DNA of 29,587 bases from Candidatus Zhuqueibacterota bacterium RBG_16_48_16 (GTDB lineage: Bacteria > Zhuqueibacterota > Zhuqueibacteria > Residuimicrobiales > Sediminimicrobiaceae). Position numbers and translations under genes: made by a program. Below the pieces are notes generated by a model that was not told the DNA's origin, did not search any database, and was given only the letters and a program-made list of their open reading frames with translations. The stretch covers positions 599 to 30,185 of the forward strand of contig METF01000314.1 of assembly GCA_001771235.1 (NCBI GenBank), written 5' to 3'. Shown here one piece after another: positions 1-18,676 of this stretch. The stretch's first letter is position 1. Each line of letters opens with the position of its first letter.

Positions 1-2
1 AG

Positions 3-437
3 GCAAACAGCGCCAACCTGGGATTCAACATTGTGACCAAATATCCAAAGTCTCATTATGTTTGCATCGATGAGCGGGAAATACGACTGGCGGAGCACAG
101 CAAGCATGGCTCGATAAAGGATATGGTTTATCATATTGCCGGGCGTATGCAGGCCGAGACTATCAGCGTCACGCTCGGCGAAGAAGGCGCCCTGGCTTAT
201 CGCGCCGGAAATGGCTTTAGCACTGTGCCGATTTTTTCAGACGGGGTTATCGACACAGTAGGCGCCGGAGATGCGTTTTTAGCTATCACTTCTTTAACAG
301 CTCTGGCAGGCCAGCCGACGGATGTGATCGGATTCATTGGCAACGCCGTGGGCGCACTGGCGGTTCGTATTGTTGGAAATAAGGAATCCATAGAACCCAC
401 CGCGCTTTTTAAATTTATTCAGACTTTATTGAAATGA
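3..437 (+). CDS. PfkB-family carbohydrate kinase, C-terminal part (RfaE/HldE kinase-like); 5' end lies outside the window
   Basis: The frame is open from position 3 (ANSANLGFNIVTKYP...). It carries the PfkB C-terminal signature DTVGAGDAF and sits directly upstream of a gmhA-like gene. Confidence 0.8.
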   Translation, partial: ANSANLGFNIVTKYPKSHYVCIDEREIRLAEHSKHGSIKDMVYHIAGRMQAETISVTLGEEGALAYRAGNGFSTVPIFSDGVIDTVGAGDAFLAITSLTALAGQPTDVIGFIGNAVGALAVRIVGNKESIEPTALFKFIQTLLK

Positions 438-446
438 AGGATAATC

Positions 447-1088
447 ATGAACGATCAGCTTTTTTCGAAACGGTACTTGGCAGAGTTAACCTGTGTTCTG
501 GAAAATCTCAATTTGAAGGTTTGGTCCAAGATCCTCCAAGAGCTGGAACGGGTCTTTTACGAGAATGCGACAATTTTCCTGATCGGCAATGGCGGCAGCG
601 CCTCTACTGCCTCGCATATAGCCAATGATTTGATGCTGGGAGCAGCCAGGGAAGGAGGGAGGGGATTTAAAGCCATATCATTATGCGACAACGCTGCCGT
701 GACGATGGCGATTGCCAACGATACAAACTATGACCAAATTTTTTCCCGGCAGTTAAAGGTGTTAGCCAGACACGGCGATGCGCTCTTGTCCATTTCAGGC
801 AGCGGCAATTCTCCCAACCTGATAAAAGCCGTTCGAACAGCGAATGAGCTTGATATGATTACCATTGGCTTTTTAGGGATGGATGGTGGAAAATTGCTTA
901 AAATGTGCGGTACTTCCATTGTCGTACCGTCTGATGATTACGGACTCATCGAGACCGTGCATGTAGCGCTGGATCACCTGTTGGTTGACTATTTTAAACA
1001 ATTGCAGAAGAGCCACGAGAACATTGATCACGTCCCCGGCACAGGTCTCTCTGTTGCTCAACGTGCCTGGATTGCTGAAACGGCCTAA
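447..1088 (+). CDS. gmhA: SIS-domain phosphoheptose (sedoheptulose-7-phosphate) isomerase
   Basis: Motifs IGNGGSASTASH, AIANDTNYDQIFSRQL, SISGSGNSPNL, GFLGMDGG and IETVHVALDH are typical of GmhA. RBS aagga at 437-441. Confidence 0.85.
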   Translation: MNDQLFSKRYLAELTCVLENLNLKVWSKILQELERVFYENATIFLIGNGGSASTASHIANDLMLGAAREGGRGFKAISLCDNAAVTMAIANDTNYDQIFSRQLKVLARHGDALLSISGSGNSPNLIKAVRTANELDMITIGFLGMDGGKLLKMCGTSIVVPSDDYGLIETVHVALDHLLVDYFKQLQKSHENIDHVPGTGLSVAQRAWIAETA

Positions 1089-1222
1089 GTGTCTGAACGA
1101 AAACTGGCAAAATAAAAAAGAGCTGTCATTGCGAGCGGAGGAAATGAGTCATTTCCCGTTCAATTTGCTTTTTTGGAGCGAAGCAATCTCGGAACCGTTT
1201 GGGTTTTCGTTCAGACAAGTAG
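1085..1222. mobile_element. MITE-like miniature element bounded by 20-bp inverted repeats
   Basis: ctaagtgtctgaacgaaaac (1085-1104) matches the reverse complement of 1203-1222 at 18/20, with a perfect 15-bp core (1090-1104 / 1203-1217). No transposase and no clear target duplication. Confidence 0.55.
1123..1190. repeat. Left half of a GTCATTGCGAG...CGAAGCAATC palindromic intergenic repeat
   Basis: 1123-1188 matches 23275-23340 at 60/66 nt. It contains the mini-hairpin ggaaatga-g-tcatttcc. Confidence 0.85.
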
Positions 1223-1372
1223 TCCATTTCAGAATTATTTGCCGGGTTATGGAAAAAGCAAAAAGTTCATAGTCCAGCCTTTAGGCCGAAATTGTCAAGC
1301 CAAAGCTTGAACTACAGACAAAAAACCCAACATGAACTTATGAAATGGAGCAAGTTCGCAAAAGGAACACAC

Positions 1373-2308
1373 ATGATAGCCGTTGAACAAGATTACACAA
1401 AATTTATCCAAAAGGGATTCAATGCGCCAGACGAAGGTAAGGGACGCCTGCCGGATTTTATCGGATTGGGCGTCCGCAGGTGCGCATCCACCTACCTGCA
1501 AAACATGCTCATGCAGCACCCGGAATTGGCGTTTCCAAGAATCTCGCCCGATGTCCCATTCTGTTGCGATCCCGGCTTTTTTGAGAAATTGAAGAAAGAG
1601 GGTCCCTTTATTTTAAAAGAATCGCACATGTGGACGCCTTTTTACTTAGATTGGAAGCAAAAGTTAGGGTATCTAAACACCTACAAGCGGCTGTTTGAGC
1701 ATGCCCAACCCTGGCAGAAAGCGGGAGAAGTCTCAGCGATTTACCTGCTGTTTTTGACCTATGGCAATTTCATTGGCGACTTTAAAAAGATACTGCCCCA
1801 TGTCAAATTGTTTTTCACCATCCGCAACCCGGTCGAGCGTTTGATCAGCGACTTTTTTCATTGGCCGCCGAATGAAGAGGAAAATCCTGATTTTGAAGCG
1901 TGCGTCAATACCATTGCCTGGCGTGTGTCAAATAACCAGGTCAACACGGTGGATTATCACAACCGGCTTTTTCTGACCGGGTTTTATCATAACAGCATCC
2001 AAAAACTTTACCAATATTTCCCAATCGACCAGGTACATATTATCTTGTTTGAAGAGATCAAAGAAAATCCTAAAGTCGCGTTGCGTCGTTTGTGCCGGTT
2101 TCTTGACATCGACGAGGGGTTTGAGTTTCGGGATATTGAGAAACCGGTCAAGCCGGCGCTGGTGGAAAAATCCTATAAAAAAAGAAATACAGCAACTGCG
2201 GAGCAGAAACAGAAACTCATCGACTTGTACAGGCCGTCTATATTGAATCTATCTAAAATTATCAATCGGGATTTAACCGGCTGGCTGGATGTAGAATCAA
2301 TAAATTAA
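1373..2308 (+). CDS. PAPS-dependent sulfotransferase family protein
   Basis: 5'-PSB-like loop PDFIGLGVRRCASTYL and 3'-PB motif IRNPVERLISDF. Start moved from the ORF-track TTG (1292) to ATG 1373, which follows an aaagga RBS at 1361-1366. Confidence 0.8.
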   Translation: MIAVEQDYTKFIQKGFNAPDEGKGRLPDFIGLGVRRCASTYLQNMLMQHPELAFPRISPDVPFCCDPGFFEKLKKEGPFILKESHMWTPFYLDWKQKLGYLNTYKRLFEHAQPWQKAGEVSAIYLLFLTYGNFIGDFKKILPHVKLFFTIRNPVERLISDFFHWPPNEEENPDFEACVNTIAWRVSNNQVNTVDYHNRLFLTGFYHNSIQKLYQYFPIDQVHIILFEEIKENPKVALRRLCRFLDIDEGFEFRDIEKPVKPALVEKSYKKRNTATAEQKQKLIDLYRPSILNLSKIINRDLTGWLDVESIN

Positions 2309-2323
2309 AAATAAGGTGCCTAT

Positions 2324-2953
2324 ATGAATCCTGCTAATACACTACAGTCGATAGAAGATTGGAATGAGCTTCAATTTCACCTCGCCCAGCGAGAGAATCA
2401 AAAGCCTGTAGCCGAAAAATTAGACCGTCCTTTTAACATGGCAAAAAAGCAGATATTCGAAAAATTCATTCCAAAAAATAAACCTTTGAAAATCCTGGAA
2501 GCCGGTTGCTTTACTGCAGCATGGGGAGAATACTTTGCCGGAATGGGCCATGATGTCTTGTGTGTAGATCTGCCGGAAGTGCTGGATATTGCCAGGCGCG
2601 ATATTCCTGTAAGGTATGCTCCATGCGACTTGAACAACAATTTTCCGGATGGAAAATTTGATATTATTCTTTGTACGCAGGTGATCGAACATGTCGCCCG
2701 GGACTTTGAATTGCTGAGGAATATCTGCACTCATCTGGAGCCGGACGGACTGGCCTTTATCGATACGGTCACGGAAATACCGGACAAGGTCGAGGACCAT
2801 GGACATTTAAGGGCTTATCCGGGCTATAGCCTGCAGGCTCTGATGAAAACGGCTGGATTTGAAATTGTCTTTTTTGCCAGGATTGTCTTGAAGCAATCGA
2901 ATGATGAGAATGTTTTTGCTATTGGTAAAAGAGCGACGTGTGCTGCATGTTAA
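2324..2953 (+). CDS. Class I SAM-dependent methyltransferase
   Basis: Motif I variant ILEAGCFTA, VLCVDL, then FDIILCTQVIEHV and LEPDGLAFI. RBS aaggtg upstream. Confidence 0.8.
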   Translation: MNPANTLQSIEDWNELQFHLAQRENQKPVAEKLDRPFNMAKKQIFEKFIPKNKPLKILEAGCFTAAWGEYFAGMGHDVLCVDLPEVLDIARRDIPVRYAPCDLNNNFPDGKFDIILCTQVIEHVARDFELLRNICTHLEPDGLAFIDTVTEIPDKVEDHGHLRAYPGYSLQALMKTAGFEIVFFARIVLKQSNDENVFAIGKRATCAAC

Positions 2954-2976
2954 CCGATCATCGAGGTATTATTTCA

Positions 2977-4122
2977 ATGGCTTTAGCAGACGATTGGAAA
3001 GATAACACAACATCTCCTGCTGTCGCGCAACAAGGCCTTGCTCATGGAGCGGACGGGAATCGGGATCGGAGGGCGGATTCCTGGAAGAAATACTATGACC
3101 AGGGTTGTGCCGCTCTCACTGCAAATGATTTACAGCAAGCCCGGACGCTTTTCAATCTCGCTATAAATGTTGACTATAACCAGCCGCTAACATGGATAAA
3201 AACAGCGATGATGTTTCAAAGGCAAGGCGACATGAGCTCGGCCATAGCCGCCATCCAAACAAGCCTTGATCTGGATCCTGAAAATACGATTGCGCGCTAT
3301 TACGCCGGGATTTTTAACCGCGTCATGCTGGAACGATTCGCTGACAAAACCGGCAAAAAGTTATCCTGCTATCAGGAAGAAATCGTCTACACAACGGAAG
3401 ACGAGCTGCTGGTGAAACGCGGCGATAAAATCGATGATGTAAATTTCGCCAGAGCTCTGGATGCCTTTTGGACCGGCTTTGTTGGGGGCGACTGGAACGC
3501 TGTACGAACACGGCATGAATTTTCTGAAGAACAAATGAAACAATACATCGATCACATAGCTCGAATGCTTGCAATGGAATTTTTTGGCGTCAAGATCCAA
3601 AAAAATGACCGCATTCTTGATATCGGGACAGGCGCCGGCAAGATTTTACACGTCCTGGCTCAACACGGCCTGCTGAAGAATGTTACGGCTACCGATGTCG
3701 CGGTGAATGAGCTTAGAGGGCTGAAAAGGAAATTTTATAAAGCGCATCATGATCAGCCCTTAGGCTACGTAGGACTGTTGGCACAACAGCTACCTTTTAA
3801 AAAGCAGGTGTTTGACGTCATTCTCATGATGGATATCGTGGAACACCTCTATCATAACGAGCTCGTAGCGGTTTTAAAAGAGATTAAGAATATTTTAAAA
3901 CCCGGCGGCAGGATATATATACAGACACCCAATGGAATGCGGTACATGGGAAAATTAGAGAGACTGCCTGACAATAAAATCAATATCCCCGAGATGAACG
4001 GCAACTGGCAGCACGTAGCAGAAAAATCGATGGGATATTTGAAAAAGACATTAAATGATTGCGGCTATGACGTGGAGGTCTTAAACCGGCTGCGTTGCGC
4101 GGTGAAAGCGACGGTTGCTTGA
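2977..4122 (+). CDS. TPR-repeat plus class I SAM methyltransferase fusion
   Basis: N-terminal TPR-like helices (ARTLFNLAINVDYNQPLTW; AIAAIQTSLDLDPENTIARY). C-terminal ILDIGTGAG, FDVILMMDIVEHL and LKPGGRIYIQTPN. Start chosen after gaggt at 2963-2967; ATG 2947 is an alternative. Confidence 0.8.
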   Translation: MALADDWKDNTTSPAVAQQGLAHGADGNRDRRADSWKKYYDQGCAALTANDLQQARTLFNLAINVDYNQPLTWIKTAMMFQRQGDMSSAIAAIQTSLDLDPENTIARYYAGIFNRVMLERFADKTGKKLSCYQEEIVYTTEDELLVKRGDKIDDVNFARALDAFWTGFVGGDWNAVRTRHEFSEEQMKQYIDHIARMLAMEFFGVKIQKNDRILDIGTGAGKILHVLAQHGLLKNVTATDVAVNELRGLKRKFYKAHHDQPLGYVGLLAQQLPFKKQVFDVILMMDIVEHLYHNELVAVLKEIKNILKPGGRIYIQTPNGMRYMGKLERLPDNKINIPEMNGNWQHVAEKSMGYLKKTLNDCGYDVEVLNRLRCAVKATVA

Positions 4123-4166
4123 AAGTATCAGATCGATGAGCTGCAAAAATAAAACCTGCTAATGGA

Positions 4167-4213
4167 TTGAATGCTTGAGTCCATGCAATCATACGTTCAT
4201 AAAATTCGGAGAA
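4167..4213 (+). repeat. Duplicated leader of GT2-TPR paralog 1
   Basis: ttgaatgcttgagt plus ccatgcaatcatacgttcataaaattcggagaa recurs at 5377-5390 and 5439-5471 (two substitutions in the second block). Confidence 0.9.
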
Positions 4214-4219
4214 CGACTT

Positions 4220-5380
4220 GTGACGAAAACTGCAAAGAAGAATAAACAAAAATTGGCCCGACCGACCCTGTCTCTCTGCATGATTGTCAAAAATGAAGAA
4301 ATGTACTTGCCAACTGCTCTGGAAAGTATCAAAGATATCGTCAATGAAATGATTGTCGTGGATACCGGTTCTACGGATCGGACGGTGGAAATTGCGCAGA
4401 AAAACGGCGCCCACGTATTCCATTTCGAATGGTGCGACGATTTTTCCAGGGCGCGCAACTATTCGCTTGATCACGCCGCCGGTGATTGGATCTTGAGCCT
4501 CGATGCTGACGAGCGCATCCCGCGCAGTGAGCTGGCAAAAATTCGGCAGGCAATATATTACTCCGAAATTGCCGCGGTTTCCATGATTCAGCGCATTCCC
4601 CAGGCAAATGAAAATCTGGTGCCGTTTGTCGATAGCGAATATTGCCGGCTTTTTCGCAACCATCCTGAAATCCGCTATCAAGGCCGCATTCATGAGCAAA
4701 TTTTACCGGCCATACAAAAACTCAATGGCAAGGTATTGCAAAGCGACATTGTCATCGATCATTGGGCTTATGGCGCAACAGCGGAAAAGAAGAAAAAGCG
4801 GGCCCAACGCAATATGAGGTTGCTGTTAAAAGATGCGGATGAAAATCCCTGCGACCCATTTATTTGCTATAATCTTGGGATGACTTTTCGGGAATTGGCG
4901 AACAATACAAAAGCAATTTTTTGGCTGCAAAAGGCGATTGAAAATGACGATAAGAAGATAAAAAGAGAAATCATTGCCAATTCGCATCTGGCTCTGAGTC
5001 AGCTCTTTTTGCAAGCTAATCATTTCGGCCTGGCCGAATCGCATGCCAACTGGGCGTTTTTAATAAACTCGAGAAATCTAATTTCCCTTTATATTCAGGC
5101 TACCATTTCTGTTTGTAGAAAAGACTATCAACAAGCAGTGGAAAGATTGGAGAATTTGATTCGTCTTTCGGCAAAAGAAAACATAGTGGAAAGGAAGATT
5201 CCTGCGCGGCAGCTCTGGAACGACTTGGCCGGATGCAGGGCGGCTGCCGGAGATTGGCAGGGAGCCGAAATCGCCCTTAGTATGTCAAGCGATAAAAGTG
5301 AGCAGGAATACGATTCCCGGTTCAAGGTTGCCATCTCGGAGATCAAGCCATTCATGACCTTGCCGGAAGCTTCAGTTTGA
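4220..5380 (+). CDS. Glycosyltransferase family 2 with C-terminal TPR repeats (paralog 1)
   Basis: TLSLCMIVKNEE, VVDTGSTDRT, FSRARN, DWILSLDADE and IHEQ, then TPR helices. GTG 4220 follows ggaga and aligns with the start of paralog 2 (VTKTAK vs MAKTAK). Confidence 0.9.
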   Translation: MTKTAKKNKQKLARPTLSLCMIVKNEEMYLPTALESIKDIVNEMIVVDTGSTDRTVEIAQKNGAHVFHFEWCDDFSRARNYSLDHAAGDWILSLDADERIPRSELAKIRQAIYYSEIAAVSMIQRIPQANENLVPFVDSEYCRLFRNHPEIRYQGRIHEQILPAIQKLNGKVLQSDIVIDHWAYGATAEKKKKRAQRNMRLLLKDADENPCDPFICYNLGMTFRELANNTKAIFWLQKAIENDDKKIKREIIANSHLALSQLFLQANHFGLAESHANWAFLINSRNLISLYIQATISVCRKDYQQAVERLENLIRLSAKENIVERKIPARQLWNDLAGCRAAAGDWQGAEIALSMSSDKSEQEYDSRFKVAISEIKPFMTLPEASV

Positions 5381-5471
5381 ATGCTTGAGTGCATGGTTGC
5401 ATGAATGCATGGCGGCGTGACGGCATGCAACCATACATCCATGCAATCATGCGTTCGTAAAATTCGGAGAA
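5377..5471 (+). repeat. Duplicated leader of GT2-TPR paralog 2, with an extra 48-bp hairpin-forming segment
   Basis: Same leader as 4167-4213 plus 5391-5438, which contains the perfect 11-bp inverted repeat atggttgcatg / catgcaaccat and a 4/8-bp periodic (a/g)tgc pattern. Confidence 0.85.
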
Positions 5472-5477
5472 TGACAC

Positions 5478-7229
5478 ATGGCGAAAACAGCAAAGTATAA
5501 ATTAAAGTCGCCCCGGCCAACCCTGTCTCTTTGCATGATTGTGAAAAACGAAGAACAATTCCTCGGACAATGCCTGGACAGCGTGCAGGATATTGTTGAT
5601 GAAATGATCATAGTGGACACAGGCTCGACGGACAGTACCGTCGAAATCGCCGGGCGATACGGCGCTCAAATCTTTCATCATCCCTGGCAGGGCAGCTTTA
5701 GCGAGGCGAGGAATTATGGATTGCAATACGCTACCGGCGATTGGATCCTGCAAATGGACGCGGATGAGGAGCTGGAAAAGGCCGATATCCCGATTTTAAA
5801 AAAGGTACTCCGGTCCGATTTGTATGACGCCATTTTTGTCGCTCTGTTGAATGATAGTCCCGAGGGTTGGGCCAAACATTATTTTCAACGTATATTTCGC
5901 CGGGGAAAGGCGCATTACGAGGGGATCGTGCACAATCAATTGGCCTACAAAGGCGCCGATCTGAGAACAGAGGTCCGCATTTACCACTGGGGATACAATC
6001 TTTGTGAAGAAAAAATGGCGGCGAAAATGCGCCGCACCGAGGAGCTGTTGCTAAAACAACTGGCGGAGGACGAAACCAATCCTTTTTCTTATGTGAATTA
6101 CTTACGGGTTCTGAGAGCACAGAAGCGATATGATGAGGCCGTGCAAACGGGGGAGAAGGCACTGGAGATTTGCCGACAGCGTATGACAGAGATTCACCGC
6201 CAAATGATCTTTTATGATACGGCTTACAGCGCCCTGCATGCCGGCCAGGAAGAAAAGGCGGAACAACTTTGTCAGGAAATTCTCAAAGAGTTTCCAGAAA
6301 ATATCGACATTCTTTTTACTGTGGCGACCGTTTTAATCAGCCAAAAAAAATATCGACAGGCGATTGAAACGTTTCATCGTTTTTTGGATATTCAGCAAAA
6401 ACTGAAAATAAAGCCTCAACATACCAGGCTGATCATCGACACATATAATTTTGATCATAAAGCCTGGGGACATATCTCAGATTGCTATTACGAATTGCAG
6501 GAATATGATAAATCCCTAAAAGCAGCCGAAAAGGCTGTTGCAGCGCGCAAGACCCCGCCAGCCTATCAGGTGACGTTGGCAAGGGTGTTGCTCAAATTGA
6601 ATCGCGTCGATGAGGCACGAAAAGAATTGACCGAGGTGGAGAGGACAGACCAGACGAATGTGCTGTTTTATTTGAAATGGGCGGCTCTTTGTAAGAGAAA
6701 TCCTGAATTGGGCGATGAAATGGCGCAGATCGAGCTCGGTTTGAAACGCTTTCCTCATTCTGAGGAGCTGCTCAACTACCGGGCTTATGCACTGCAAAAC
6801 GAGAATCCGCAGGAAGCGGAGAAAGTATGGCGAAACGTCATCGGGATTAATCCCGATCATGTGGGAGCCTATGTAGGGTTGGCAAAAATTGCCGCCAAAA
6901 ATCGACATTTGCAGGATTTGGAAAATTATGTGGAGGCCATCCTGAACAAAGCCGATAGTCCACCTGTCTTTAAAGAAGTCGGCGGATACTGTCTGCACGC
7001 CAGGCTGTATCGACAAGCCATCGATTTGTTCAGCAAATACCTGGCTAAAAAACCTGACGATGTCGAGGTCTTGACAGACGTGGCCACCTGCTATGCAAAA
7101 CAAGGGCATATTGAAGCTGCCATGTATGGTTTTCAGGCTGTTTTGGGGATAGCGCCTGAAAATGGCCGTGCCAGGGATAATTTGGCTAAAGTGATTATAG
7201 TGTTGCAAAGGAAGAGAGCGGTTGTATGA
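5478..7229 (+). CDS. Glycosyltransferase family 2 with many TPR repeats (paralog 2)
   Basis: TLSLCMIVKNEEQFL, IVDTGSTDST, FSEARN, DWILQMDADE and VHNQL, followed by a long TPR array. RBS ggaga. Confidence 0.9.
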   Translation: MAKTAKYKLKSPRPTLSLCMIVKNEEQFLGQCLDSVQDIVDEMIIVDTGSTDSTVEIAGRYGAQIFHHPWQGSFSEARNYGLQYATGDWILQMDADEELEKADIPILKKVLRSDLYDAIFVALLNDSPEGWAKHYFQRIFRRGKAHYEGIVHNQLAYKGADLRTEVRIYHWGYNLCEEKMAAKMRRTEELLLKQLAEDETNPFSYVNYLRVLRAQKRYDEAVQTGEKALEICRQRMTEIHRQMIFYDTAYSALHAGQEEKAEQLCQEILKEFPENIDILFTVATVLISQKKYRQAIETFHRFLDIQQKLKIKPQHTRLIIDTYNFDHKAWGHISDCYYELQEYDKSLKAAEKAVAARKTPPAYQVTLARVLLKLNRVDEARKELTEVERTDQTNVLFYLKWAALCKRNPELGDEMAQIELGLKRFPHSEELLNYRAYALQNENPQEAEKVWRNVIGINPDHVGAYVGLAKIAAKNRHLQDLENYVEAILNKADSPPVFKEVGGYCLHARLYRQAIDLFSKYLAKKPDDVEVLTDVATCYAKQGHIEAAMYGFQAVLGIAPENGRARDNLAKVIIVLQRKRAVV

Positions 7230-7406
7230 AGGCCTGGCATTATTCCGAAAACAGAAAGCGCTTTTTATTGAAATCCCCAAAAGCAAAATGATTTGATGGC
7301 AAAATAAATTCGATATGGTGATCTGTTTATTTGCGGGGAATGCCTTTTTGATTATCCAATTTTTTCATTAGCTCTTTAATCAAAATAAATATTCGGGAAA
7401 AAAAAC

Positions 7407-7433
7407 TAAAGTTTGTCGAACTCGAGTCGATAA
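7407..7433 (+). promoter_or_regulatory. Sigma-28 (FliA/SigD) promoter of flagellin
   Basis: TAAAGTTT (7407-7414), 11 nt, GTCGATAA (7426-7433): one mismatch to the extended consensus TAAAGTTT-N11-GCCGATAA, preceded by an A-rich tract. Confidence 0.9.
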
Positions 7434-7485
7434 CAGTGAATGAGAGTCATAGATAAATCCTGACTCAAACTCACAACAACATAGC

Positions 7486-7516
7486 GGCAAGGAAGCCTCG
7501 AAATCCAACAAGGAGG
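7486..7516 (+). promoter_or_regulatory. Two candidate CsrA/RsmA binding sites in the flagellin 5' UTR
   Basis: GGC-AAGGAA-GCC places GGA in a hairpin loop (7486-7497). A second AAGGA overlaps the Shine-Dalgarno (7510-7516). This is the arrangement known from Bacillus hag leaders. Confidence 0.65.
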
Positions 7517-7524
7517 TACTAGTC

Positions 7525-8781
7525 ATGGCACGAGCAGATTTTACCCGTATCGCAACCAACATCGGCGCCTTGAATGCTTTAAATTCGCTGAAGAATGTGA
7601 ATAATCAACTGGCCATTCATCAGCAAAGGCTGGCGACCGGTAAACGTATCAACAGCCCTGCTGATGATGCAGCCGGTTGGACGATTAGCTCTACATTAAG
7701 TCTCAAAAGCACCGGACTTGGCGTTGCTTTGGACAACATTGGATCTGCCAAGAATCTGATGAGCGTTGCCGAAGGCCACCTGACCAATATCCGTGATATT
7801 TTGGCGGAGATGAAAGCAAAGGCCCAGCAGGCGGCAAACGATACCTTAGGCACAGATGAGCGAGCCGCCATTCTCGCAGAGCTTCAGGACTACAACACCC
7901 AGATCAATTCTGAAGTAGCCCAGGCCACCTGGTCCGGCATTGACATCCTGTCAACGGACAAGAACTTTCAAATCGGTGTGGGCACTTCGACGAGCGAGGA
8001 ATTGACCTTTAACGTTGCCGAGTTTGTTTGGAGCAACGGCACAAACACTACTTTTAATTCCGCCGGACTCGATGTAACAGCTTCTTCTTCGACCGTCAGA
8101 ACCGCGGCAACCACGACGACTACCGCGACGCTGAACATCGGATTTGGCGCCACGCCATTAGACACATCGGCGAACCTGAACAGCCTGGCAGGTGAATTGG
8201 AAACCGGGCATTATACCGTCGAAATATCCTCGGATGGCGCAGGCAGCGGCACCAACACGATAACCATCACCGTTCGGGATGGCAATGGAGATTTGGTCAC
8301 AATAGACGCTGACGGCGCTGCGAGTGGAGCTGTAGGCACAAGTCTTTCGACCACTTTTGCCGGGTCAGGCACCAATCCAGCCGCTGTTAATCTCGGCGTC
8401 GGCATTGTTATCGATCTCGCCAACGTTGCTACAGGAGCGGCCGGGTCAGGTGTTATGCACGTCGACTATGCACAGGGCGGTCAGGCGGTCGACACCATGG
8501 CCAATGCCCAGGCCTTTATGGACCAGATCGATACGGCCCTTGAGAATGTGAACGACGGTCTGACCTATATCGGTAACCAGGTGAACCGTTTAACATTCCA
8601 GGAACAATCACTGACCGTAGCTAAATTGAACACCGAAGCTTCATACAACCAGATCATGAACGCGGATATGGCTTTGGAACAATTGGAAGCTACAAAACTT
8701 ACGATTCTGCAACAAACTGCAACCGCCATGTTGGCCCAGGCGAACGCCGCGCCGCAAGGTGTGTTGAGCCTGTTCCAGTAG
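7525..8781 (+). CDS. fliC: Flagellin
   Basis: N-terminus RIATNIGALNA...QRLATGKRINSPADDAAG and C-terminus ADMALEQLEATKLTILQQTATAMLAQANAAPQGVLSLF. Strong RBS aaggagg. Confidence 0.97.
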   Translation: MARADFTRIATNIGALNALNSLKNVNNQLAIHQQRLATGKRINSPADDAAGWTISSTLSLKSTGLGVALDNIGSAKNLMSVAEGHLTNIRDILAEMKAKAQQAANDTLGTDERAAILAELQDYNTQINSEVAQATWSGIDILSTDKNFQIGVGTSTSEELTFNVAEFVWSNGTNTTFNSAGLDVTASSSTVRTAATTTTTATLNIGFGATPLDTSANLNSLAGELETGHYTVEISSDGAGSGTNTITITVRDGNGDLVTIDADGAASGAVGTSLSTTFAGSGTNPAAVNLGVGIVIDLANVATGAAGSGVMHVDYAQGGQAVDTMANAQAFMDQIDTALENVNDGLTYIGNQVNRLTFQEQSLTVAKLNTEASYNQIMNADMALEQLEATKLTILQQTATAMLAQANAAPQGVLSLFQ

Positions 8782-8802
8782 AATTCATCACACAAGATCA
8801 AA

Positions 8803-8830
8803 AGCGCGGCCTGAAAAGGGCGCGCTATTC
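8803..8830 (+). terminator. GC-rich hairpin after flagellin (possible partial terminator or processing stem)
   Basis: agcgcg-gcc-tgaaaa-ggg-cgcgct stem-loop, followed only by attc, so the U-tract is weak. Confidence 0.5.
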
Positions 8831-8873
8831 GTGTTTATAAACGTAGCAAATGGAACGACAGAGAGGATCGAAC

Positions 8874-9209
8874 ATGTTTTATCCCCGGTGCAATGGAAAG
8901 AAAGCAATGCTCGATAAATATCATGAGAATGAGATTTTTGTGGCAAGACCCGAACAGTTATTGCTCACTCTTTATGATCAGGCGATTTTGGGGTGCAAAA
9001 AACAGGATGAAGGGAAAGCGTCCTCTGCGCTCGCAAGGTTAATAGACGCTTTAAATTTTGAATACGCAGAAATTTCCGCCGGATTATTCCGACTGTACGA
9101 ATATGCCCTGAGGATGGTCAGACAGAAAAATTTCGGCCAGGCTCTGCCAATACTTACCGAGCTGAGGCAGACATGGACGGAAGCAATCCAAAAAGCAAGA
9201 GCTGCATAA
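8874..9209 (+). CDS. fliS: Flagellin export chaperone FliS
   Basis: ARPEQLLLTLYDQAI and LIDALNFE...LFRLYEY...ILTELRQTW follow the FliS pattern. ATG 8874 follows gagagg. Confidence 0.88.
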   Translation: MFYPRCNGKKAMLDKYHENEIFVARPEQLLLTLYDQAILGCKKQDEGKASSALARLIDALNFEYAEISAGLFRLYEYALRMVRQKNFGQALPILTELRQTWTEAIQKARAA

Positions 9210-9220
9210 AGGAGAATTAA

Positions 9221-10987
9221 ATGGCTGGCACGGCATCTGTTGGAAGTACAGGGAGTCTTGAATCGTTGATTCAACAGTACATGACCCTGGAACGGCGACC
9301 TTTGACGACAATGCAGGCGAACAGAAATTCTCTTTCTACAAAGTCAACCTTATTTGATGACGTAAAGACCCAACTGCAGGATTTGCAGGATTTGGCTGAG
9401 GAAATGGCAGAAACGGATGCCGATGAGTCTGTTTTCAATACCGTTCAGGCTTCTTCCGGCGATACGGATACCATAACTGTCAGCGCGGATGAAGGAGCGG
9501 CAGAAGGGACCTACCTTTTCAGAGTCAGGCAGTTAGCGACATCGACGACCATGAAAAGCACGGGGTATTTAAATACAGCCGCTTCGGTAAAAAGCAGCTC
9601 GCAAGTTGTCGCGGGAACAGGTTATTTGACTACAAGCAGAAGCTGGGCTCTGGCAGGATTTGCTACAGTCCCGGACGGTACGGCAACGATTAACGGCAAG
9701 ACTTTTACTTTATCCGATTATTCGACAGTTGACGCCTTTATGACGGCTGTGAACAATGACGAGGATGCGGACGCTCACATTTATTACAACCGGAGTACCG
9801 ACAGGTTTGTGATCGAGCACGATACGCCGGGAGAAACGCTGACTTTGGCAGAATCTGCAAGCGGTTTTTTGACGCAAGTTAATATAACGGCCGGTTCTTA
9901 TGCAGCAAATACGACCGGCGTTCAAACAGATGTACTTTTAAAGAATGCGAACTTTGATTACGCTTTCTCAGCCGCAGAGACGGGCAGTTTTACCATTAAC
10001 GGCGTTGAGATTGATTGGGATGCTGATTCGGACACGCTTGGAGAGATTATCTCCAGGATAAACGCCTCCGAGGCAAATGTAACGGCTTTTTACGATGAAT
10101 CATTGGATAAAGTAACCTTCACGGCCAATGAAACCGGAAGCGAAGAAATCCAATGGGAAGACGTTACCGGAACATTCCTGGGCGATGCGCTCAAGCTCAC
10201 GGGCGTGACGCAAAGTGTGGGCAATGACGCCAAATTTACTATCAATAGTGCCGATAGCGAAGATGAGATAACAAAAACATCAAATACATTTACCCTGAAC
10301 GGTCTGTCTGTTACTTTAAAAGATATAACAGTAGCCAACGGCAGCTATGCGGATTCCGGCACGACATCCGTAACAATAACATCGACGCAGGATACATCGG
10401 CCATTAGAACAAAAATATCGTCCTTTCTCACCAAATTCAATACGGTCAGAGATTATCTGAAGAACAAGCTGAGTGTCGATCCGACCACCTATTCGAGAGG
10501 CGCTCTGGCGGGTGAAACGACTTTTAGAAATCTACTGACAAATATGACGACCATTATTCTCGACCAGGTTTCAGGTGTGGGTGCGAATGATCCGTCAACG
10601 CTCTATGAAATCGGGATTACTTTTGATGAAAAGTTGCATGCAAGTATTACGGATGAATCCACCATGAATGATGTGATCGAGAGTGATCCCTCTGCCGTTG
10701 CAGCTATTTTTAATTCGACTTATGGTATTGCGACCAGATTATATGACGTGTTGGATCTTTATACGGAAACTGACGGCATCATTGATGGGCGAAAAGATAT
10801 CATTGAAGACCAGATACAGGATATTGATAAGAGGGTGGACAAATACCAGGTAAGATTATCTATCAAGGAGAGACAATATCGAAACGAGTTGTATGCTGTT
10901 CAAAATCTGCTCAATCGTACTATTCAGCAGCAGAATTTAATGAGCTCTATCCTTGAGAGCGTGAATACATTATTGGGGTTGACCTAG
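9221..10987 (+). CDS. fliD: Flagellar filament cap protein FliD
   Basis: N-terminus LIQQYMTLERRPL and GTYLFRVRQLATS. C-terminus SRGALAGET, LYEIGITFD and a coiled-coil tail. RBS aaggaga. Confidence 0.92.
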   Translation: MAGTASVGSTGSLESLIQQYMTLERRPLTTMQANRNSLSTKSTLFDDVKTQLQDLQDLAEEMAETDADESVFNTVQASSGDTDTITVSADEGAAEGTYLFRVRQLATSTTMKSTGYLNTAASVKSSSQVVAGTGYLTTSRSWALAGFATVPDGTATINGKTFTLSDYSTVDAFMTAVNNDEDADAHIYYNRSTDRFVIEHDTPGETLTLAESASGFLTQVNITAGSYAANTTGVQTDVLLKNANFDYAFSAAETGSFTINGVEIDWDADSDTLGEIISRINASEANVTAFYDESLDKVTFTANETGSEEIQWEDVTGTFLGDALKLTGVTQSVGNDAKFTINSADSEDEITKTSNTFTLNGLSVTLKDITVANGSYADSGTTSVTITSTQDTSAIRTKISSFLTKFNTVRDYLKNKLSVDPTTYSRGALAGETTFRNLLTNMTTIILDQVSGVGANDPSTLYEIGITFDEKLHASITDESTMNDVIESDPSAVAAIFNSTYGIATRLYDVLDLYTETDGIIDGRKDIIEDQIQDIDKRVDKYQVRLSIKERQYRNELYAVQNLLNRTIQQQNLMSSILESVNTLLGLT

Positions 10988-11014
10988 AACCGGTTTGCCC
11001 CAGGGAGTGCTATT

Positions 11015-11383
11015 ATGAAAGTCGATAGTTTGGAAAATGACTCCAGCCAAAGCACAGGCAAGAGCTTGTCTATGGCTGATGGTGTGCAAAGTGGGAATAA
11101 CAACCGCAGCGATCGACTTATAAGCGAACCAACGAAACTTGCGGATGATCAGCAAATCTCTGGGGAACATCTTGAAAGGACTGTAGAAAATTTGCAAAAG
11201 GTCGCCGCCAATCTCAAATCTCGTCTCAGTTTTAGCACGGATGAATCGACTGGAAAGACGGTTATCACGGTCCTTGAGGAAGATTCCGGAAAAATCATTC
11301 GCCAGATACCGCCGGAAGAGGTTTTAAGGCTGTCTGCAAAAATGACCGAAGTGATCGGGATCCTGTTTGACAAAGGCGTGTGA
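11015..11383 (+). CDS. flaG: FlaG (YvyC) family flagellar protein
   Basis: C-terminal LSFSTDESTGKTVITVLEEDSGKIIRQIPPEEVLRL...GILFDKGV is the FlaG signature. Confidence 0.92.
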   Translation: MKVDSLENDSSQSTGKSLSMADGVQSGNNNRSDRLISEPTKLADDQQISGEHLERTVENLQKVAANLKSRLSFSTDESTGKTVITVLEEDSGKIIRQIPPEEVLRLSAKMTEVIGILFDKGV

Positions 11384-11384
11384 G

Positions 11385-11807
11385 ATGGCCCAAGAACCTT
11401 CAAGTAATTTAGGATTCGTTCTGAAGGAGCAGTACGAAAATTTATGTTCGCTGGAAATGATGAACAATGCTTTGCTGGCAAGGTTTGATATTGACGACGG
11501 TGAATCGGTCAGTCACGATCAAATTGATGCCTATTTCAAAGATTGCGAGCGTCACCTGACAAAGCTTTTTGAGTGTGAAAAAACTGTCAAAACGGCTATT
11601 CAGAGAGCCGAAAGCCAATGTACCGGGCAGGGCAATGCGGATAAAATGCGAACATTGATGAACATCCGTAACAAGGCCATTTCGATAAGAAAAACACTCG
11701 ATTTGCTGGTGGAAAAAATCAGTCGTCGGCGTAATGGATTATCAAAAAAAACATTGCAAATTTCGAAAAATAATCAGAAAATACGCCTGTACGCTCAGAA
11801 TATGTAA
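11385..11807 (+). CDS. Alpha-helical hypothetical protein, possibly a FlgN/FliT-type export chaperone
   Basis: About 140 aa, amphipathic helical pattern, starts 1 nt after the flaG stop. Function is inferred from context only. Confidence 0.5.
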   Translation: MAQEPSSNLGFVLKEQYENLCSLEMMNNALLARFDIDDGESVSHDQIDAYFKDCERHLTKLFECEKTVKTAIQRAESQCTGQGNADKMRTLMNIRNKAISIRKTLDLLVEKISRRRNGLSKKTLQISKNNQKIRLYAQNM

Positions 11808-11848
11808 GACAGCCCCTGCTTATTTTTTGCTACGAAAAGGATAGTTGA

Positions 11849-12250
11849 ATGAAGATCTCAAACGAAAGCGCATACCTGCTAAAATTTCATTCTCGGCTGG
11901 ACAACTCGAGAGATAAATCAAAGACCGATCACGTCGACTCGAAAAAAGAGAGAGAAAGGGATCGTATCACTCTCTCTACAAAGGGAGAGAATGTTCGCGA
12001 AAACGATGCGGATTCAATTTACAGTCGCCAAAAAATCAACGAAGCACCAGGCCCGCGGGAATACGAAGTGGACACCAATGAAGGGAAGGAGCAGCACCGC
12101 GTGATGCAACCAGAGAGCGAGCAGGATTTGACGCCGTCGAACAGGCTGGAGCAAATCAAAATCAATATTCAAGATGGATATTATGAACAAGAGCAGGTTA
12201 TTAGCGAGGTATCGAAAATTATCGCAGAAGAGATATCGAGTAAAAAGTAA
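11849..12250 (+). CDS. flgM: FlgM-like anti-sigma-28 factor
   Basis: Low-complexity charged N-terminus with DRITLS, and C-terminal RLEQIKINIQDGYYEQEQVISEVSKII resembling the FlgM sigma-binding helices. At 133 aa it is longer than typical FlgM. Confidence 0.6.
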   Translation: MKISNESAYLLKFHSRLDNSRDKSKTDHVDSKKERERDRITLSTKGENVRENDADSIYSRQKINEAPGPREYEVDTNEGKEQHRVMQPESEQDLTPSNRLEQIKINIQDGYYEQEQVISEVSKIIAEEISSKK

Positions 12251-12489
12251 TTTTTTGAGATTTATTTTGAGATCAGGTGCAAAAATCCCAAGATGAATGC
12301 GTTTAGCCCTCCTTTGAGTATCACCCCTCATTGTTTTTTGCTGTTTTTTCATCCTGTTCATTCGTTTATGCCAGGCGATCCATGAACTTACACAAGGCGC
12401 GGTTTCTGCATTCCTGAGTAATTTTTGTAGATATTTGTGTTCTTTTATGCTCTATTTCATAAACCAGTTTAGGTAAAAATACTCCAATC

Positions 12490-13467
12490 ATGGCCAAGCT
12501 CGTTTACAGTGCGCTAAAGAAAATCGCTCCTCCCCTCATACGCTATTCCACTATTCCATTCATTCGTCATATTCCGAGAAAGTCCGCCGCCATAATTGCC
12601 ATTCATGATTATGAGTCAAAGCTTTTATATGATTGTCTGGCGAAATTGAAAGAGAACTATCGTGTCATCCCGCTGTCTGTGTTAACAAACGACCTGCTCG
12701 ATGATCGGCTCGATTCCGGCTCGGTGGCCATCACATTGGACGACGGCATTTTAATACAGGTGAGGACAATTGCACAGATATTGGAGCAATTGTCCCTGCC
12801 GGCAACTTTTTTTATTTGCCCCGATTTTTTGGATTCGGACCATGTCTATTGGTGGGAAGAAGTAAGATTGCTGCTTTCTTTTACTTCGAAGATGAATATT
12901 CAGTTTGACGGCAATTTTTATTCGTTGAAGAACAAATACGAAAGATTCTCCGCATTCAAAAAGATCAACAAAGGCTTTTACTCAAAAAGCCAGGAAGAGA
13001 TTGAAAGTCGGCTGGTGCAGTTACACAAAGCCTGCGACATCGGCAGGGAGGATCTTCCCGTTCACCATTCCATTCGCATGGCAAAGACGGAAGACATAAC
13101 CAGGTTGATGAAAACAGGTCTCTTTGAAATAGGTAGCCACTCGATGGATCATCCGTGGCTGGCGCTTCAGACCGAAGAGGAGATAATCTACCAGGTAGGG
13201 GGTTCGAAGAAAAGGCTGGAACTGCTTTTTGGCAAAGTATCGGAATGCTTTTGTTATCCTTATGGACCGCGCGAAAGCGTCAATCAAAAAACATTAGAGG
13301 TGGCCGGCCGATTCTACAAGAGCGCGGTAACCGCTCAATATGGCCGCGTTCGATCCGGCGATAATCCTTTGCTGCTGAAAAGGGTGTTCCTGATGCCGGG
13401 TGAGAATTACTCAGTCTGGGAGGCCAAAATTAACGGCGTTTGGAAGCAGGTCGAACAATACCTATAG
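12490..13467 (+). CDS. Polysaccharide deacetylase (NodB homology, CE4)
   Basis: Motifs AITLDDG, EIGSHSMDHPWL and FCYPYG. Confidence 0.88.
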   Translation: MAKLVYSALKKIAPPLIRYSTIPFIRHIPRKSAAIIAIHDYESKLLYDCLAKLKENYRVIPLSVLTNDLLDDRLDSGSVAITLDDGILIQVRTIAQILEQLSLPATFFICPDFLDSDHVYWWEEVRLLLSFTSKMNIQFDGNFYSLKNKYERFSAFKKINKGFYSKSQEEIESRLVQLHKACDIGREDLPVHHSIRMAKTEDITRLMKTGLFEIGSHSMDHPWLALQTEEEIIYQVGGSKKRLELLFGKVSECFCYPYGPRESVNQKTLEVAGRFYKSAVTAQYGRVRSGDNPLLLKRVFLMPGENYSVWEAKINGVWKQVEQYL

Positions 13468-15450: not shown

Positions 15451-16773
15451 ATGTTCCAGGATCTCACTGAAAAATTAGAAACCGTCCTCAGGAAATTAAA
15501 AGGACACGGCAAGCTCACCGAGAAAAATATTTCGGAGAGCATGAGAGAAATCCGCCGGGTGTTGCTGGAGGCGGATGTGAACTATAAAGTCGCCAGGCAG
15601 TTCATTGCCGGCGTGGAGCAAAAGGCTTTAGGCCAGGAAGTTCTGAAAAGCATAACGCCGGGCCAGCAGGTGGTCAAGATCATTTATGATGAGCTCACTT
15701 TTCTCATGGGTGAGAAAGCGGATCAGATCCAATTTTCAAATGTCCCGCCTAGTGTCATCATGCTTGTCGGACTTCAGGGATCCGGAAAGACGACTTTGGC
15801 CGGTAAGATAGGACAATACCTGCGAAAAAAAGGCAGAAATCCCCTGCTCGTCGCCGCCGACATTTATCGACCCGCGGCCATTCAACAGCTTTCGGTCGTC
15901 GGTCGTGCAACGGGCTTGAAGACTTATTCGGAAGAATCCCAACATGCGGCTGCAATTTGTGAACACGCCGTAGATTTTGCGCGAAAAAATATGTTTGACA
16001 CCGTGATCATCGATACTGCAGGCCGGCTGCACATCGATGACGATTTGATGGGCGAGCTGATAGATATCAGAAAAGTGACCAACCCAAGTGAAATACTCTT
16101 TGTTGCCGACGGCATGACCGGCCAGGACGCGGTGAACACCGCCAGCGCCTTTCAGGAAAAGCTTGGTTTTGACGGCATCGTATTGACCAAGATGGATGGT
16201 GATGCACGCGGCGGCGCCGCCCTGTCCATTCGCGCGGTTACCGACAAGCCGATTAAATTCCTGAGTGTTGGTGAAAAATTCGACCGGCTCGAAGTATTTC
16301 ATCCCGAGAGAATGGCATCGCGGATTTTAGGCATGGGCGATGTGGTTTCTTTGGTTGAAAAGGCCCAGGAAGCGATAGATCAGGAAAAAGCCATCAAACT
16401 GGAAAGAAAACTTTCCAGGGAAGAGTTCACTCTCGAAGATTTTTATGATCAGCTTCAGCAAGTAAGGAAGATGGGTCCGTTACAGGATATTCTCGCCATG
16501 ATGCCCGGACAAATGAACAAGGCACTGCGCGGTGTGACCGTTGACGACAAGGCACTTGTTATGATCGAAGCGATCATAAATTCCATGACCAAAGAGGAAA
16601 GGCGCCGTCCGAATCTCATCAACGGCAGCCGGAAAAAGAGAATTTCAAGGGGCAGTGGCACCACGGTGCAGGACGTGAATCGCCTGATCAATCAGTTCAA
16701 TATGATGCAAAAGATGATCAAAATGATGAAAAAAGGCGGGGGAAAAAGAATGAGAATACCATTTGGATTTTAA
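15451..16773 (+). CDS. ffh: Signal recognition particle protein Ffh
   Basis: GLQGSGKTT, DTAGRL, TKMDGDARGG and the Met-rich M domain with RISRGSG. Confidence 0.98.
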   Translation: MFQDLTEKLETVLRKLKGHGKLTEKNISESMREIRRVLLEADVNYKVARQFIAGVEQKALGQEVLKSITPGQQVVKIIYDELTFLMGEKADQIQFSNVPPSVIMLVGLQGSGKTTLAGKIGQYLRKKGRNPLLVAADIYRPAAIQQLSVVGRATGLKTYSEESQHAAAICEHAVDFARKNMFDTVIIDTAGRLHIDDDLMGELIDIRKVTNPSEILFVADGMTGQDAVNTASAFQEKLGFDGIVLTKMDGDARGGAALSIRAVTDKPIKFLSVGEKFDRLEVFHPERMASRILGMGDVVSLVEKAQEAIDQEKAIKLERKLSREEFTLEDFYDQLQQVRKMGPLQDILAMMPGQMNKALRGVTVDDKALVMIEAIINSMTKEERRRPNLINGSRKKRISRGSGTTVQDVNRLINQFNMMQKMIKMMKKGGGKRMRIPFGF

Positions 16774-16792
16774 CTAACCGGAGGAGAACTCA

Positions 16793-17338: not shown

Positions 17339-17385
17339 TTTCCCGTTATCGATTGTTCCCATTTCCGTAAATAGAGGATTCATCC

Positions 17386-17925: not shown

Positions 17926-17936
17926 AAAAACAGAGA

Positions 17937-18671: not shown

Positions 18672-18676
18672 GAACA

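Follow-up and report, generated by a model that had tools for sequence, protein, structure and literature searches.

A 29,587-nt stretch of the genome of Candidatus Zhuqueibacterota bacterium RBG_16_48_16 (genome G000, contig C314, positions 599-30185; hereafter the window) contains a run of sugar-modifying genes that leads directly into the gene for flagellin. The parent assembly is of metagenome type and 78.9% complete. Combined with a second group of genes on contig C185, this run appears, on balance, to be an island for cytoplasmic O-glycosylation of flagellin with a heptose-derived amino sugar, and the resulting glycan may also be methylated and perhaps sulfated.

The first-pass annotation of the window had described seven co-oriented genes with named domains running into flagellin, and profile scans with Pfam and NCBIfam agreed with it on every domain. 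Its central proposal, flagellin O-glycosylation, was strengthened by three results: the best structure match of an island glycosyltransferase was to the flagellin glycosyltransferase GmaR, synteny with fliC was found in three further lineages, and export and polymerase genes were not found in the island. The predicted sugar follows from a dehydrogenase resembling Campylobacter Cj1427 encoded beside a C4-aminotransferase.

Domain calls were made from the open reading frame (ORF) listing and the profile scans. All eight genes from the kinase through flagellin lie on the forward strand, with fliS, fliD and flaG behind them. Positions are those of the window:

3-437, + strand: C-terminal 144 amino acids of a nucleotidyltransferase-PfkB fusion (PF00294, 59 bits; GAGD motif present)
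447-1088, + strand: SIS_2 or GmhA-like isomerase, a divergent paralogue (TIGR00441, 119 bits)
1091-1216, no strand: insertion of 126 bp resembling a miniature inverted-repeat transposable element (MITE), with perfect 14-bp terminal inverted repeats (direct sequence reading)
1373-2308, + strand: carbohydrate-type sulfotransferase (Sulfotransfer_3 and Sulfotransfer_1, 49 and 44 bits in Pfam, both above cutoff)
2324-2953, + strand: S-adenosylmethionine (SAM)-dependent methyltransferase MT1 (Methyltransf_23, 60 bits)
2938-4122, + strand: TPR-containing SAM-dependent methyltransferase MT2 (Methyltransf_11, 62.5 bits)
4175-5380, + strand: GT2-TPR glycosyltransferase b (Glycos_transf_2, 76 bits, plus TPR)
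5478-7229, + strand: GT2-TPR glycosyltransferase c (Glycos_transf_2, 93 bits, plus an extensive TPR region)
7407-7433, + strand: predicted sigma-28-type flagellin promoter, TAAA-N15-GTCGATAA (near-consensus match, direct reading)
7525-8781, + strand: flagellin (Flagellin_N, 95.5 bits; Flagellin_C, 57.6 bits)
8850-9209, + strand: fliS (Pfam FliS)
9221-10987, + strand: fliD (Pfam FliD_N and FliD_C)
11015-11383, + strand: flaG (Pfam FlaG)

An island divided between two contigs

The PfkB/RfaE-like kinase of the first-pass annotation has the domain assigned to it, but turned out to be a fragment: the contig start truncates a nucleotidyltransferase fusion and leaves its C-terminal half. Its ORF is open to the start of C314, with the N-terminal ~171 amino acids falling in an unassembled gap. 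The full available ORF (L001:22-1035) is 92% identical to residues 172-515 of a 515-amino-acid fusion on L026, a 109-kb metagenome contig that carries an 89%-identical copy of the isomerase. Relatives likewise encode the kinase as the C-terminal half of a fusion of about 510 amino acids with an N-terminal PF01467 nucleotidyltransferase. The gene order on L026 provides the complete layout: a GT2-TPR protein (401 amino acids), a GT9 plus Glyco_trans_1_2 protein (1108), a methyltransferase (271), a DegT aminotransferase (375), a short-chain dehydrogenase/reductase (SDR; 329), the PF01467-PfkB fusion (515), the SIS isomerase, the sulfotransferase, a fusion of two methyltransferases (598), and two GT2-TPR genes, followed by flagellin, FliS, FliD and FlaG.

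When the L026 island proteins were searched by tblastn against the window's own genome, the remaining upstream genes were found on the reverse strand of C185, at 83-88% identity to L026. They encode a Cj1427-like SDR, a DegT C4-aminotransferase, a 269-amino-acid methyltransferase, a 1121-amino-acid glycosyltransferase with three modules, and a third GT2-TPR protein. Because the SDR runs off the end of C185 and the fusion starts at residue 172 on C314, the two contigs are taken to abut, with a junction placed from synteny and about 0.55 kb unassembled between them. By this reconstruction the window would hold roughly half of an island of about 18 kb. Runs of N (C314:571-598 and 30186-30381; C185:371-426, 3790-3819, 9647-9669 and 9872-9945) represent either scaffold gaps or masked stretches. 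Since they interrupt the genome's own SDR, a second DegT and the giant glycosyltransferase, the intact L026 orthologues were used for modelling.

Farther upstream on C185 (L031), positions 8634-12905 of the minus strand encode a PseC-like second DegT, a 136-amino-acid protein without a family match, a radical-SAM/SPASM enzyme and an AsnB-like amidotransferase, separated from the first GT2-TPR gene by about 1 kb without a long ORF. These genes could provide an amidated or further modified sugar, or could belong to a separate pathway. Because L026 has a toxin-antitoxin pair at that position, these four genes, seen upstream of the island in this genome only, are perhaps outside it.

A predicted pathway to an amino-heptose

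The best Protein Data Bank (PDB) matches of the isomerase were phosphoheptose isomerases (E 5e-28). The fusion aligns with both halves of RfaE, retains the GAGD and HxGH motifs, and has a domain order opposite to that of Escherichia coli HldE. The first-pass annotation had advised inspecting the upstream contig for nucleotidyltransferase and phosphatase genes; the nucleotidyltransferase proved to be fused to the kinase, and the phosphatase was not in the island. A GmhB-type phosphatase is encoded instead at C325:22406-22828, adjoining a canonical hldA whose product scores 353 bits, above the equivalog cutoff. The genome also has a better GmhA copy on C313 (190 bits) and an HldC-like adenylyltransferase on C86 (175 bits). 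Given this separate canonical set of HldA, GmhB, GmhA and HldC, the heptose-type genes of the island can be viewed as extra, divergent paralogues belonging to a dedicated pathway. The presence of lipopolysaccharide (LPS)-type heptose genes suggests that the host is diderm, so the analogy to GT2-TPR enzymes of Firmicutes drawn in the first-pass annotation applies to the mechanism and not to the type of organism.

Most telling for the identity of the sugar is the SDR gene at the C185 junction. By sequence, the closest solved relative of the SDR is Cj1427 (6vo6/6vo8, E 3e-39), a Campylobacter jejuni dehydrogenase that oxidises C4 of GDP-D-glycero-D-manno-heptose (PMC10680097). An AlphaFold model of the SDR (predicted local distance difference test 89.5) returned Cj1427 as the top match in a fold search, with a template modelling score of 0.83-0.91, and from a relative at only 31-33% identity we infer a heptose substrate. 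The family motif SSSSVYG...YxxxK is present, with Y144 and K148 invariant. Assignment of the SDR as a 4,6-dehydratase was rejected, the TDE triad being absent. The adjoining DegT protein matched C4-aminotransferase families only (PseC, ArnB, dTDP-4-amino-4,6-dideoxygalactose transaminase, LegC and perosamine synthase). Because a Cj1427-like C4-dehydrogenase adjoins a C4-aminotransferase, the predicted product is likely a nucleoside diphosphate (NDP)-4-amino-4-deoxy-heptose and not the unmodified heptose. The generic NDP is used since enzymes of the HldE family can make ADP-, CDP- or UDP-heptose (PMC11461863). The heptose-containing glycan anticipated by the first-pass annotation thus gained a fused nucleotidyltransferase, a GT9 module and a Cj1427-like SDR, and shifted from the plain sugar to its likely 4-amino-4-deoxy derivative.

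These genes can be ordered into a scheme in which each chemical step, as well as the acceptor, is predicted from domain identities, synteny, motif conservation and the separate housekeeping heptose genes. The GmhA-like isomerase would convert sedoheptulose-7-phosphate to heptose-7-phosphate, the PfkB domain of the fusion would phosphorylate C1, the GmhB phosphatase encoded on C325 would remove the 7-phosphate, and the fused HldC-like domain would form NDP-heptose. Oxidation at C4 by the Cj1427-like SDR and transamination by the adjoining DegT would give NDP-4-amino-4-deoxy-heptose, which the 269-amino-acid methyltransferase may N- or O-methylate. GmaR-like GT2-TPR enzymes would dock on flagellin via their TPRs and begin O-glycosylation of its Ser/Thr-rich central domain, and the protein with GT9, GT1-like and Gtf3-like modules would add the heptose-derived sugar and lengthen the chain. 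MT1 and the TPR-methyltransferase would decorate the glycan, as would the sulfotransferase if 3'-phosphoadenosine-5'-phosphosulfate (PAPS) is available.

Glycosyltransferases and flagellin as the likely acceptor

Among all PDB chains, the nearest to the GT2 domain of GT2-TPR c was GmaR (E 3.9e-31), with SunS next, and the motifs DTGSTDST and DADE (DxD) are common to GT2-TPR c and GmaR. In all fliC-linked relatives (L026, L028 and L032), GT2-TPR c is also the copy found immediately before fliC. For GT2-TPR b, the best NCBIfam match was a SunS-type peptide glycosyltransferase (96 bits). The 1121-amino-acid protein from C185 combines three modules. One is a GT9 module (PF01075; score 100 bits, cutoff 22; profile positions 76-239 of 247 covered) whose PDB matches were WaaF, WaaC and one GT9 protein without known function; the WaaF match (1psw, E 1e-8) covers the C-terminal nucleotide-sugar domain. 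Another is Glyco_trans_1_2 (GT1-like). The third is conserved, has a counterpart in L028 that is encoded as a protein of its own (44% identity), and is Gtf3_C/GT4-like by language-model features.

TPRs are carried by the three GT2 enzymes and one methyltransferase of the island, and the L028 lineage has N-terminal TPRs on its GT9 and Gtf3-like proteins as well. In all, the island encodes six soluble glycosyltransferase modules, most of them fused to TPRs. Scans of window 1-8781, C185 and the islands of L026 and L028 gave no Pfam family for a flippase, polymerase, ABC exporter or initiating phosphoglycosyl-transferase. Flagellin itself is encoded 295 nt after the end of GT2-TPR c and is the sole flagellin in the assembly; the other PF00669 match, on C30, is shorter and weak and is probably FlgL. 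The central region of flagellin (residues 151-330) is 26% Ser plus Thr, against 14-15% in the terminal domains, and contains no Lys. Flagellin is the likely acceptor because of the GmaR-like GT2-TPR enzyme, the precedent of the TPR domain of Caulobacter FlmG, the lack of export genes, and a central domain that is rich in Ser/Thr and free of Lys. A predicted complex of GT2-TPR c with flagellin scored 0.00, which is evidence neither way.

Conservation next to fliC and alternative roles of the cluster

Three further lineages (L026/27, L028-30 and L032) have the same arrangement beside fliC, and this adjacency is kept down to 57-63% protein identity. The core of the fliC-linked clade consists of DegT, SDR, fusion, methyltransferase, one or more GT2-TPR genes and fliC, and the order fliS-fliD-flaG is also found in L026 and L028. 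Other parts vary. Within this clade, the pair of sulfotransferase and MT1 is limited to the window's own genome and L026, and a PF00483 nucleoside triphosphate (NTP)-transferase takes the place of the sulfotransferase in L028 only; L032 has nothing there.

Beyond the clade, the fusion family comprised 506 loci in species-representative genomes. It is kept at 55-60% identity across phyla, and at 50-60% among groups that include Chloroflexota, Omnitrophota, Elusimicrobia, Rokubacteria and Methylomirabilia. The best 80 of the 506 loci were annotated with island proteins as queries. The SIS gene adjoins the fusion in 44 of them, and about 25 have a close SDR homologue (>300 bits), usually together with DegT; several have GT9-like genes. 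Among the loci L035-L111 (for example, L086:10001-14370), the fusion is often flanked by Cj1427-like SDR and DegT aminotransferase genes. Judged by these gene neighbourhoods, fusion, SDR and DegT seem to make up an NDP-(amino)heptose module that is widespread and uncharacterised. Linkage of this module to fliC is confined to one clade, which consists of the window's genome, L026/27, L028-30 and L032. This distribution pattern resembles that of nonulosonic-acid modules, which serve either LPS or flagella.

Several observations weigh against an amino-heptose island dedicated to flagellin, beginning with the fact that the prediction is made from sequence alone, for an uncultured organism with an incomplete assembly. 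The isomerase falls below the equivalog level of TIGR00441 (119 bits versus a cutoff of 209.45), and compared with 1tk9 and 5ltz it keeps the histidines while a catalytic, Zn-binding Glu is replaced by Asp and a Gln ligand by Glu. From its scores and residues it is classed as a related subfamily and not as a GmhA equivalog. The kinase matches RfaE domain I over its whole length and scores 89 bits there (cutoff 345); for the fused N-terminal domain the best match is RfaE domain II, with 106 bits versus a cutoff of 181.5; and the island contains no GmhB phosphatase. FliC, FliS, FliD and GT2-TPR genes occurred together in only 1 of the 80 annotated loci, the nearest one (L032, 67% identity). L113 (also 67%) encodes a TPR-methyltransferase and a GT2-TPR protein but lacks flagellin within 10 kb, flagellar genes are missing from L115 (60%), and the isomerase is absent from both L032 and L113.

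Some of these points favour an arrangement in which the GT2-TPR enzymes glycosylate flagellin with another sugar, and the PfkB, SIS, SDR and DegT enzymes make either a non-heptose product or a heptose derivative for use in LPS or a different surface glycan. Three early enzymes all score under their equivalog cutoffs, the catalytic residues of the isomerase are altered, and in most other phyla the same core occurs in ordinary polysaccharide clusters, such as L114 (62%), a Wzx-type cluster with its flippase. We consider this arrangement unlikely, since each of four enzymes independently has its best match in the heptose pathway (GmhA, RfaE domain I, RfaE domain II or Cj1427), a GT9 module of the heptosyltransferase family lies in the same operon, a canonical set that can supply LPS heptose is already present in the genome, and four lineages keep the core between GT2-TPR genes and fliC. 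The same SIS subfamily also occurs in cassettes of other genomes (including L120 and L121) with a (nucleotidyltransferase-)PfkB protein, a GmhB-like HAD phosphatase and a PF00483 NTP-transferase; the presence of GmhB in these relatives supports the heptose assignment for the SIS family as a whole.

A second arrangement, in which the cluster makes a cell-surface polysaccharide, LPS or S-layer glycan and lies beside flagellin by coincidence, was judged very improbable. In its favour, the classical role of GT9 enzymes is that of LPS heptosyltransferases, flagellar genes are lacking in 79 of the 80 annotated fusion loci, and the AsnB-like, radical-SAM and second DegT genes farther upstream on C185 could fit such a role. 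Against it stand the absence of flippase, polymerase, ABC exporter and initiating phosphoglycosyl-transferase from every island copy, the six soluble and mostly TPR-fused glycosyltransferase modules, GmaR as the nearest solved relative, and the depth to which fliC adjacency is conserved. The linkage to fliC that the first-pass annotation had proposed to test holds for the window's genome and the three related lineages, and not for the fusion family at large. The pattern named there as refuting, homologous clusters consistently tied to LPS or capsule export genes, was not seen: distant copies lie in polysaccharide clusters, but the nearest clade is fliC-linked. O-glycosylation of flagellin with a heptose-derived amino sugar remains the preferred assignment.

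Possible methylation and sulfation

Three methyltransferase domains, one with TPRs, make methylation of the glycan plausible. The domains of the two methyltransferase genes in the first-pass annotation were upheld, and the genes themselves turned out to be a split form of a single MT-TPR-MT gene. DNA alignment (window 2910-2980) revealed a 41-nt insertion relative to L026, where one protein of 598 amino acids is encoded. Both halves stay open as overlapping ORFs; MT1 is 86% identical to residues 13-218 of the L026 protein, and the second half has diverged more (59% identity). The TPR matches of MT2 are weak and, apart from a marginal TPR_2, below Pfam cutoffs.

The sulfotransferase occupies a mechanical ORF at 1292-2308, with a likely start at 1373 judged from the 311-amino-acid L026 orthologue. 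Its PDB matches were 3rnl and heparan sulfate 3-O-sulfotransferases. In the family alignment, residues R151, P153, R156 and S159 of the 3'-phosphate-binding (3'-PB) site are invariant, and the 5'-phosphosulfate-binding (5'-PSB) loop of the island enzyme reads RRCAST, with Ala for Gly and with Arg for Lys at a position where homologues alternate between K and R. By these motifs the enzyme may well be catalytically intact. The search for the PAPS source that the first-pass annotation had suggested, cysDN/cysC, came back negative: CysC, Sat, CysD and CysN (PF01583, PF01747, TIGR02039 and TIGR02034) were not found in the 78.9%-complete genome. Support for the sulfated glycan proposed there is weak, with PAPS-binding motifs largely kept in the enzyme and PAPS-synthesis genes not found.

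An exhaustive HMMER search with the sulfotransferase returned 1,307 relatives at E <= 1e-10, and the subfamily proved to be tiny, with 5 clusters at E <= 1e-30, its own included. The nearest relatives, L122:924-2651 and L116:8454-10912 (47% and ~40% identity), lie on phage-like contigs bearing terminase. On L122, a methyltransferase two genes from the sulfotransferase is 47% identical to MT1, the same identity as the sulfotransferase pair, a pattern that suggests a mobile decoration module of two genes, one for the sulfotransferase and one for the methyltransferase. Another relative, on L123, adjoins a GT2-TPR-GT1 protein in a NeuB/DegT cluster, and a more distant one lies in a Wzx/Wzy cluster. 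Across 40 genomes of the same order, only weak matches to the sulfotransferase were found (26-33% identity).

The MITE-like element starts right after the isomerase stop codon and is bounded by the inverted repeats GTCTGAACGAAAAC and GTTTTCGTTCAGAC. It has at least 40 copies in the genome, at 82-95% identity, on both strands and scattered over contigs. L026 has no MITE at this site, and its spacer between isomerase and sulfotransferase is 28 nt. Lying upstream of the sulfotransferase, the element could alter its expression, a further point to be set against sulfation alongside the lack of PAPS genes.

Flagellin may thus be glycosylated and still carry no sulfate, the sulfotransferase being idle for lack of PAPS, directed at another acceptor, or a recent, possibly phage-derived passenger. 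This outcome has as good a chance of being right as of being wrong. Favouring it are the missing donor genes, in an assembly whose only Sulfotransfer_3 gene is that of the island; the confinement of the sulfotransferase to the lineage of this genome and L026; the location of two of its four nearest relatives on phage-like contigs, with an MT1 homologue travelling with one of them; the substitutions in the 5'-PSB loop; and the MITE. On the other side, the 3'-PB residues are invariant and K and R alternate at the 5'-PSB across the family, the gene is kept in L026 at 86% identity and at the same operon position, the L123 relative adjoins a GT2-TPR protein, and the missing 21% of the genome could easily contain one cysDNC operon. 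Taken together, sulfation of the glycan has roughly even odds or a little less.

Relation to known systems

Characterised flagellin glycans are known to contain nonulosonic acids, N-acetylhexosamines, deoxyhexoses or viosamine-type sugars. Their chemistry is very diverse, and they affect filament assembly, motility, phage adsorption and immune recognition. The first-pass annotation knew of no flagellin glycan with the present combination, and none was found here: the searchable literature yielded no characterised flagellin glycan with heptose or heptosamine, and no case of a sulfotransferase that sulfates a bacterial flagellin. Islands that glycosylate flagellin by means of GT-TPR enzymes are already known; distinct in this one is the dedicated heptose-type pathway with C4 oxidation and transamination, combined with GT9, several methyltransferases and a sulfotransferase.

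Two characterised transferases provide models for the predicted flagellin modification. Listeria monocytogenes GmaR (PDB 22ao; PMC9638930) has, like the island enzymes, a GT2 domain followed by TPRs, and acts on flagellin in the cytoplasm. GmaR adds single N-acetylglucosamine residues and doubles as the MogR anti-repressor (PMC9638930), whereas an oligosaccharide is implied for the island by its three paralogues, its GT-B protein of three modules and its dedicated sugar pathway. In Caulobacter crescentus FlmG, a TPR domain binds flagellin and a glycosyltransferase domain transfers the sugar (PMC7591256). FlmG shares the modular layout and is the best mechanistic model for the TPR-fused transferases of the island, although it transfers pseudaminic acid and has a GT-B fold, and the island has no nonulosonic-acid genes and uses GT2 and GT9 folds. 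Direct cytoplasmic O-heptosylation of proteins from ADP-heptose has a precedent in the TibC/Aah heptosyltransferases (PMC4358343), which form dodecamers and act on autotransporter adhesins. TibC was not a direct match in the PDB search with the giant glycosyltransferase.

The predicted sugar pathway has partial counterparts as well. E. coli HldE, GmhA and GmhB belong to the same enzyme families and follow the same logic of isomerase, C1 kinase and nucleotidyltransferase; the island differs in its reversed domain order, its sub-equivalog scores and the lack of its own GmhB. In heptose modification for the C. jejuni capsule (PMC10680097), a 4-keto-heptose nucleotide is the branch point, as the island SDR would also make it. 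That pathway forms GDP-alpha-heptose via a GHMP kinase and HddC, continues with epimerases and reductases, and ends in capsule. The island instead has a PfkB kinase and an HldC-like nucleotidyltransferase of the beta-anomer type, an aminotransferase as the next enzyme, and flagellin as its presumed target. The only amino-heptose route found in the searchable literature is that of septacidin, in which SepI/J/A/G make the L-heptosamine by C4 oxidation followed by pyridoxal phosphate-dependent transamination to 4-amino-4-deoxy-heptose (PMC9978623). There, the heptose is already on adenine and is not an NDP-sugar, the oxidase is FAD-dependent and not an SDR, and the product is a secondary metabolite and not a protein glycan.

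Negatively charged sulfur groups and O-methyl sugars have precedents on motility filaments of Clostridioides difficile and Halobacterium. The type B flagellin glycan of C. difficile carries taurine sulfonate on a peptidylamido cap, with no sulfotransferase mentioned, and this sulfonated peptidylamido-glycan superseded an early heptose mass assignment for ribotype RT027 (PMC5207245). Archaellins of the archaeon Halobacterium salinarum bear sulfated N-glycans that are assembled on a lipid (PMC11980604). The first is a sulfonate and not a sulfate ester, and the second is N-linked; the island would, if its sulfotransferase acts on the glycan, place a sulfate ester on an O-linked chain.

The fullest version of the proposal would be a filament O-glycan built on NDP-activated 4-amino-4-deoxy-heptose and both methylated and sulfated, with a core that represents an undescribed pathway in hundreds of mostly uncultured species across phyla, recruited here to the flagellum, and a mobile sulfotransferase-methyltransferase pair shared with phages. 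All of this holding at once is doubtful, though it is a serious enough prospect to state. If true, heptosamine would be seen for the first time in a protein glycan and a sulfate ester for the first time on bacterial flagellin, flagella would gain a new class of sugar, and the widespread, strongly conserved pair of fusion and Cj1427-like dehydrogenase genes would gain a function. Because NDP-heptoses are innate-immune agonists (PMC11461863), new heptose nucleotides would be of interest beyond this organism.

Other features of the region

Scans for sigma-70 promoters and terminators in window 1-12500 gave results at chance level, and an Rfam scan of the window gave no matches. Two small ORFs without a family match (146 and 133 amino acids) follow flaG within window 11367-13467, and a polysaccharide-deacetylase-domain protein comes after both, at 12490-13467. 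In L028, a 148-amino-acid protein of unknown function is likewise encoded behind flaG, which makes the first small ORF a candidate for a conserved accessory gene of the flagellum. Farther downstream, window 15451-19024 holds the housekeeping block ffh-rpsP-rimM-trmD-rplS, and because this conserved block lies downstream of it, the island is placed on the chromosome and not on a mobile element.

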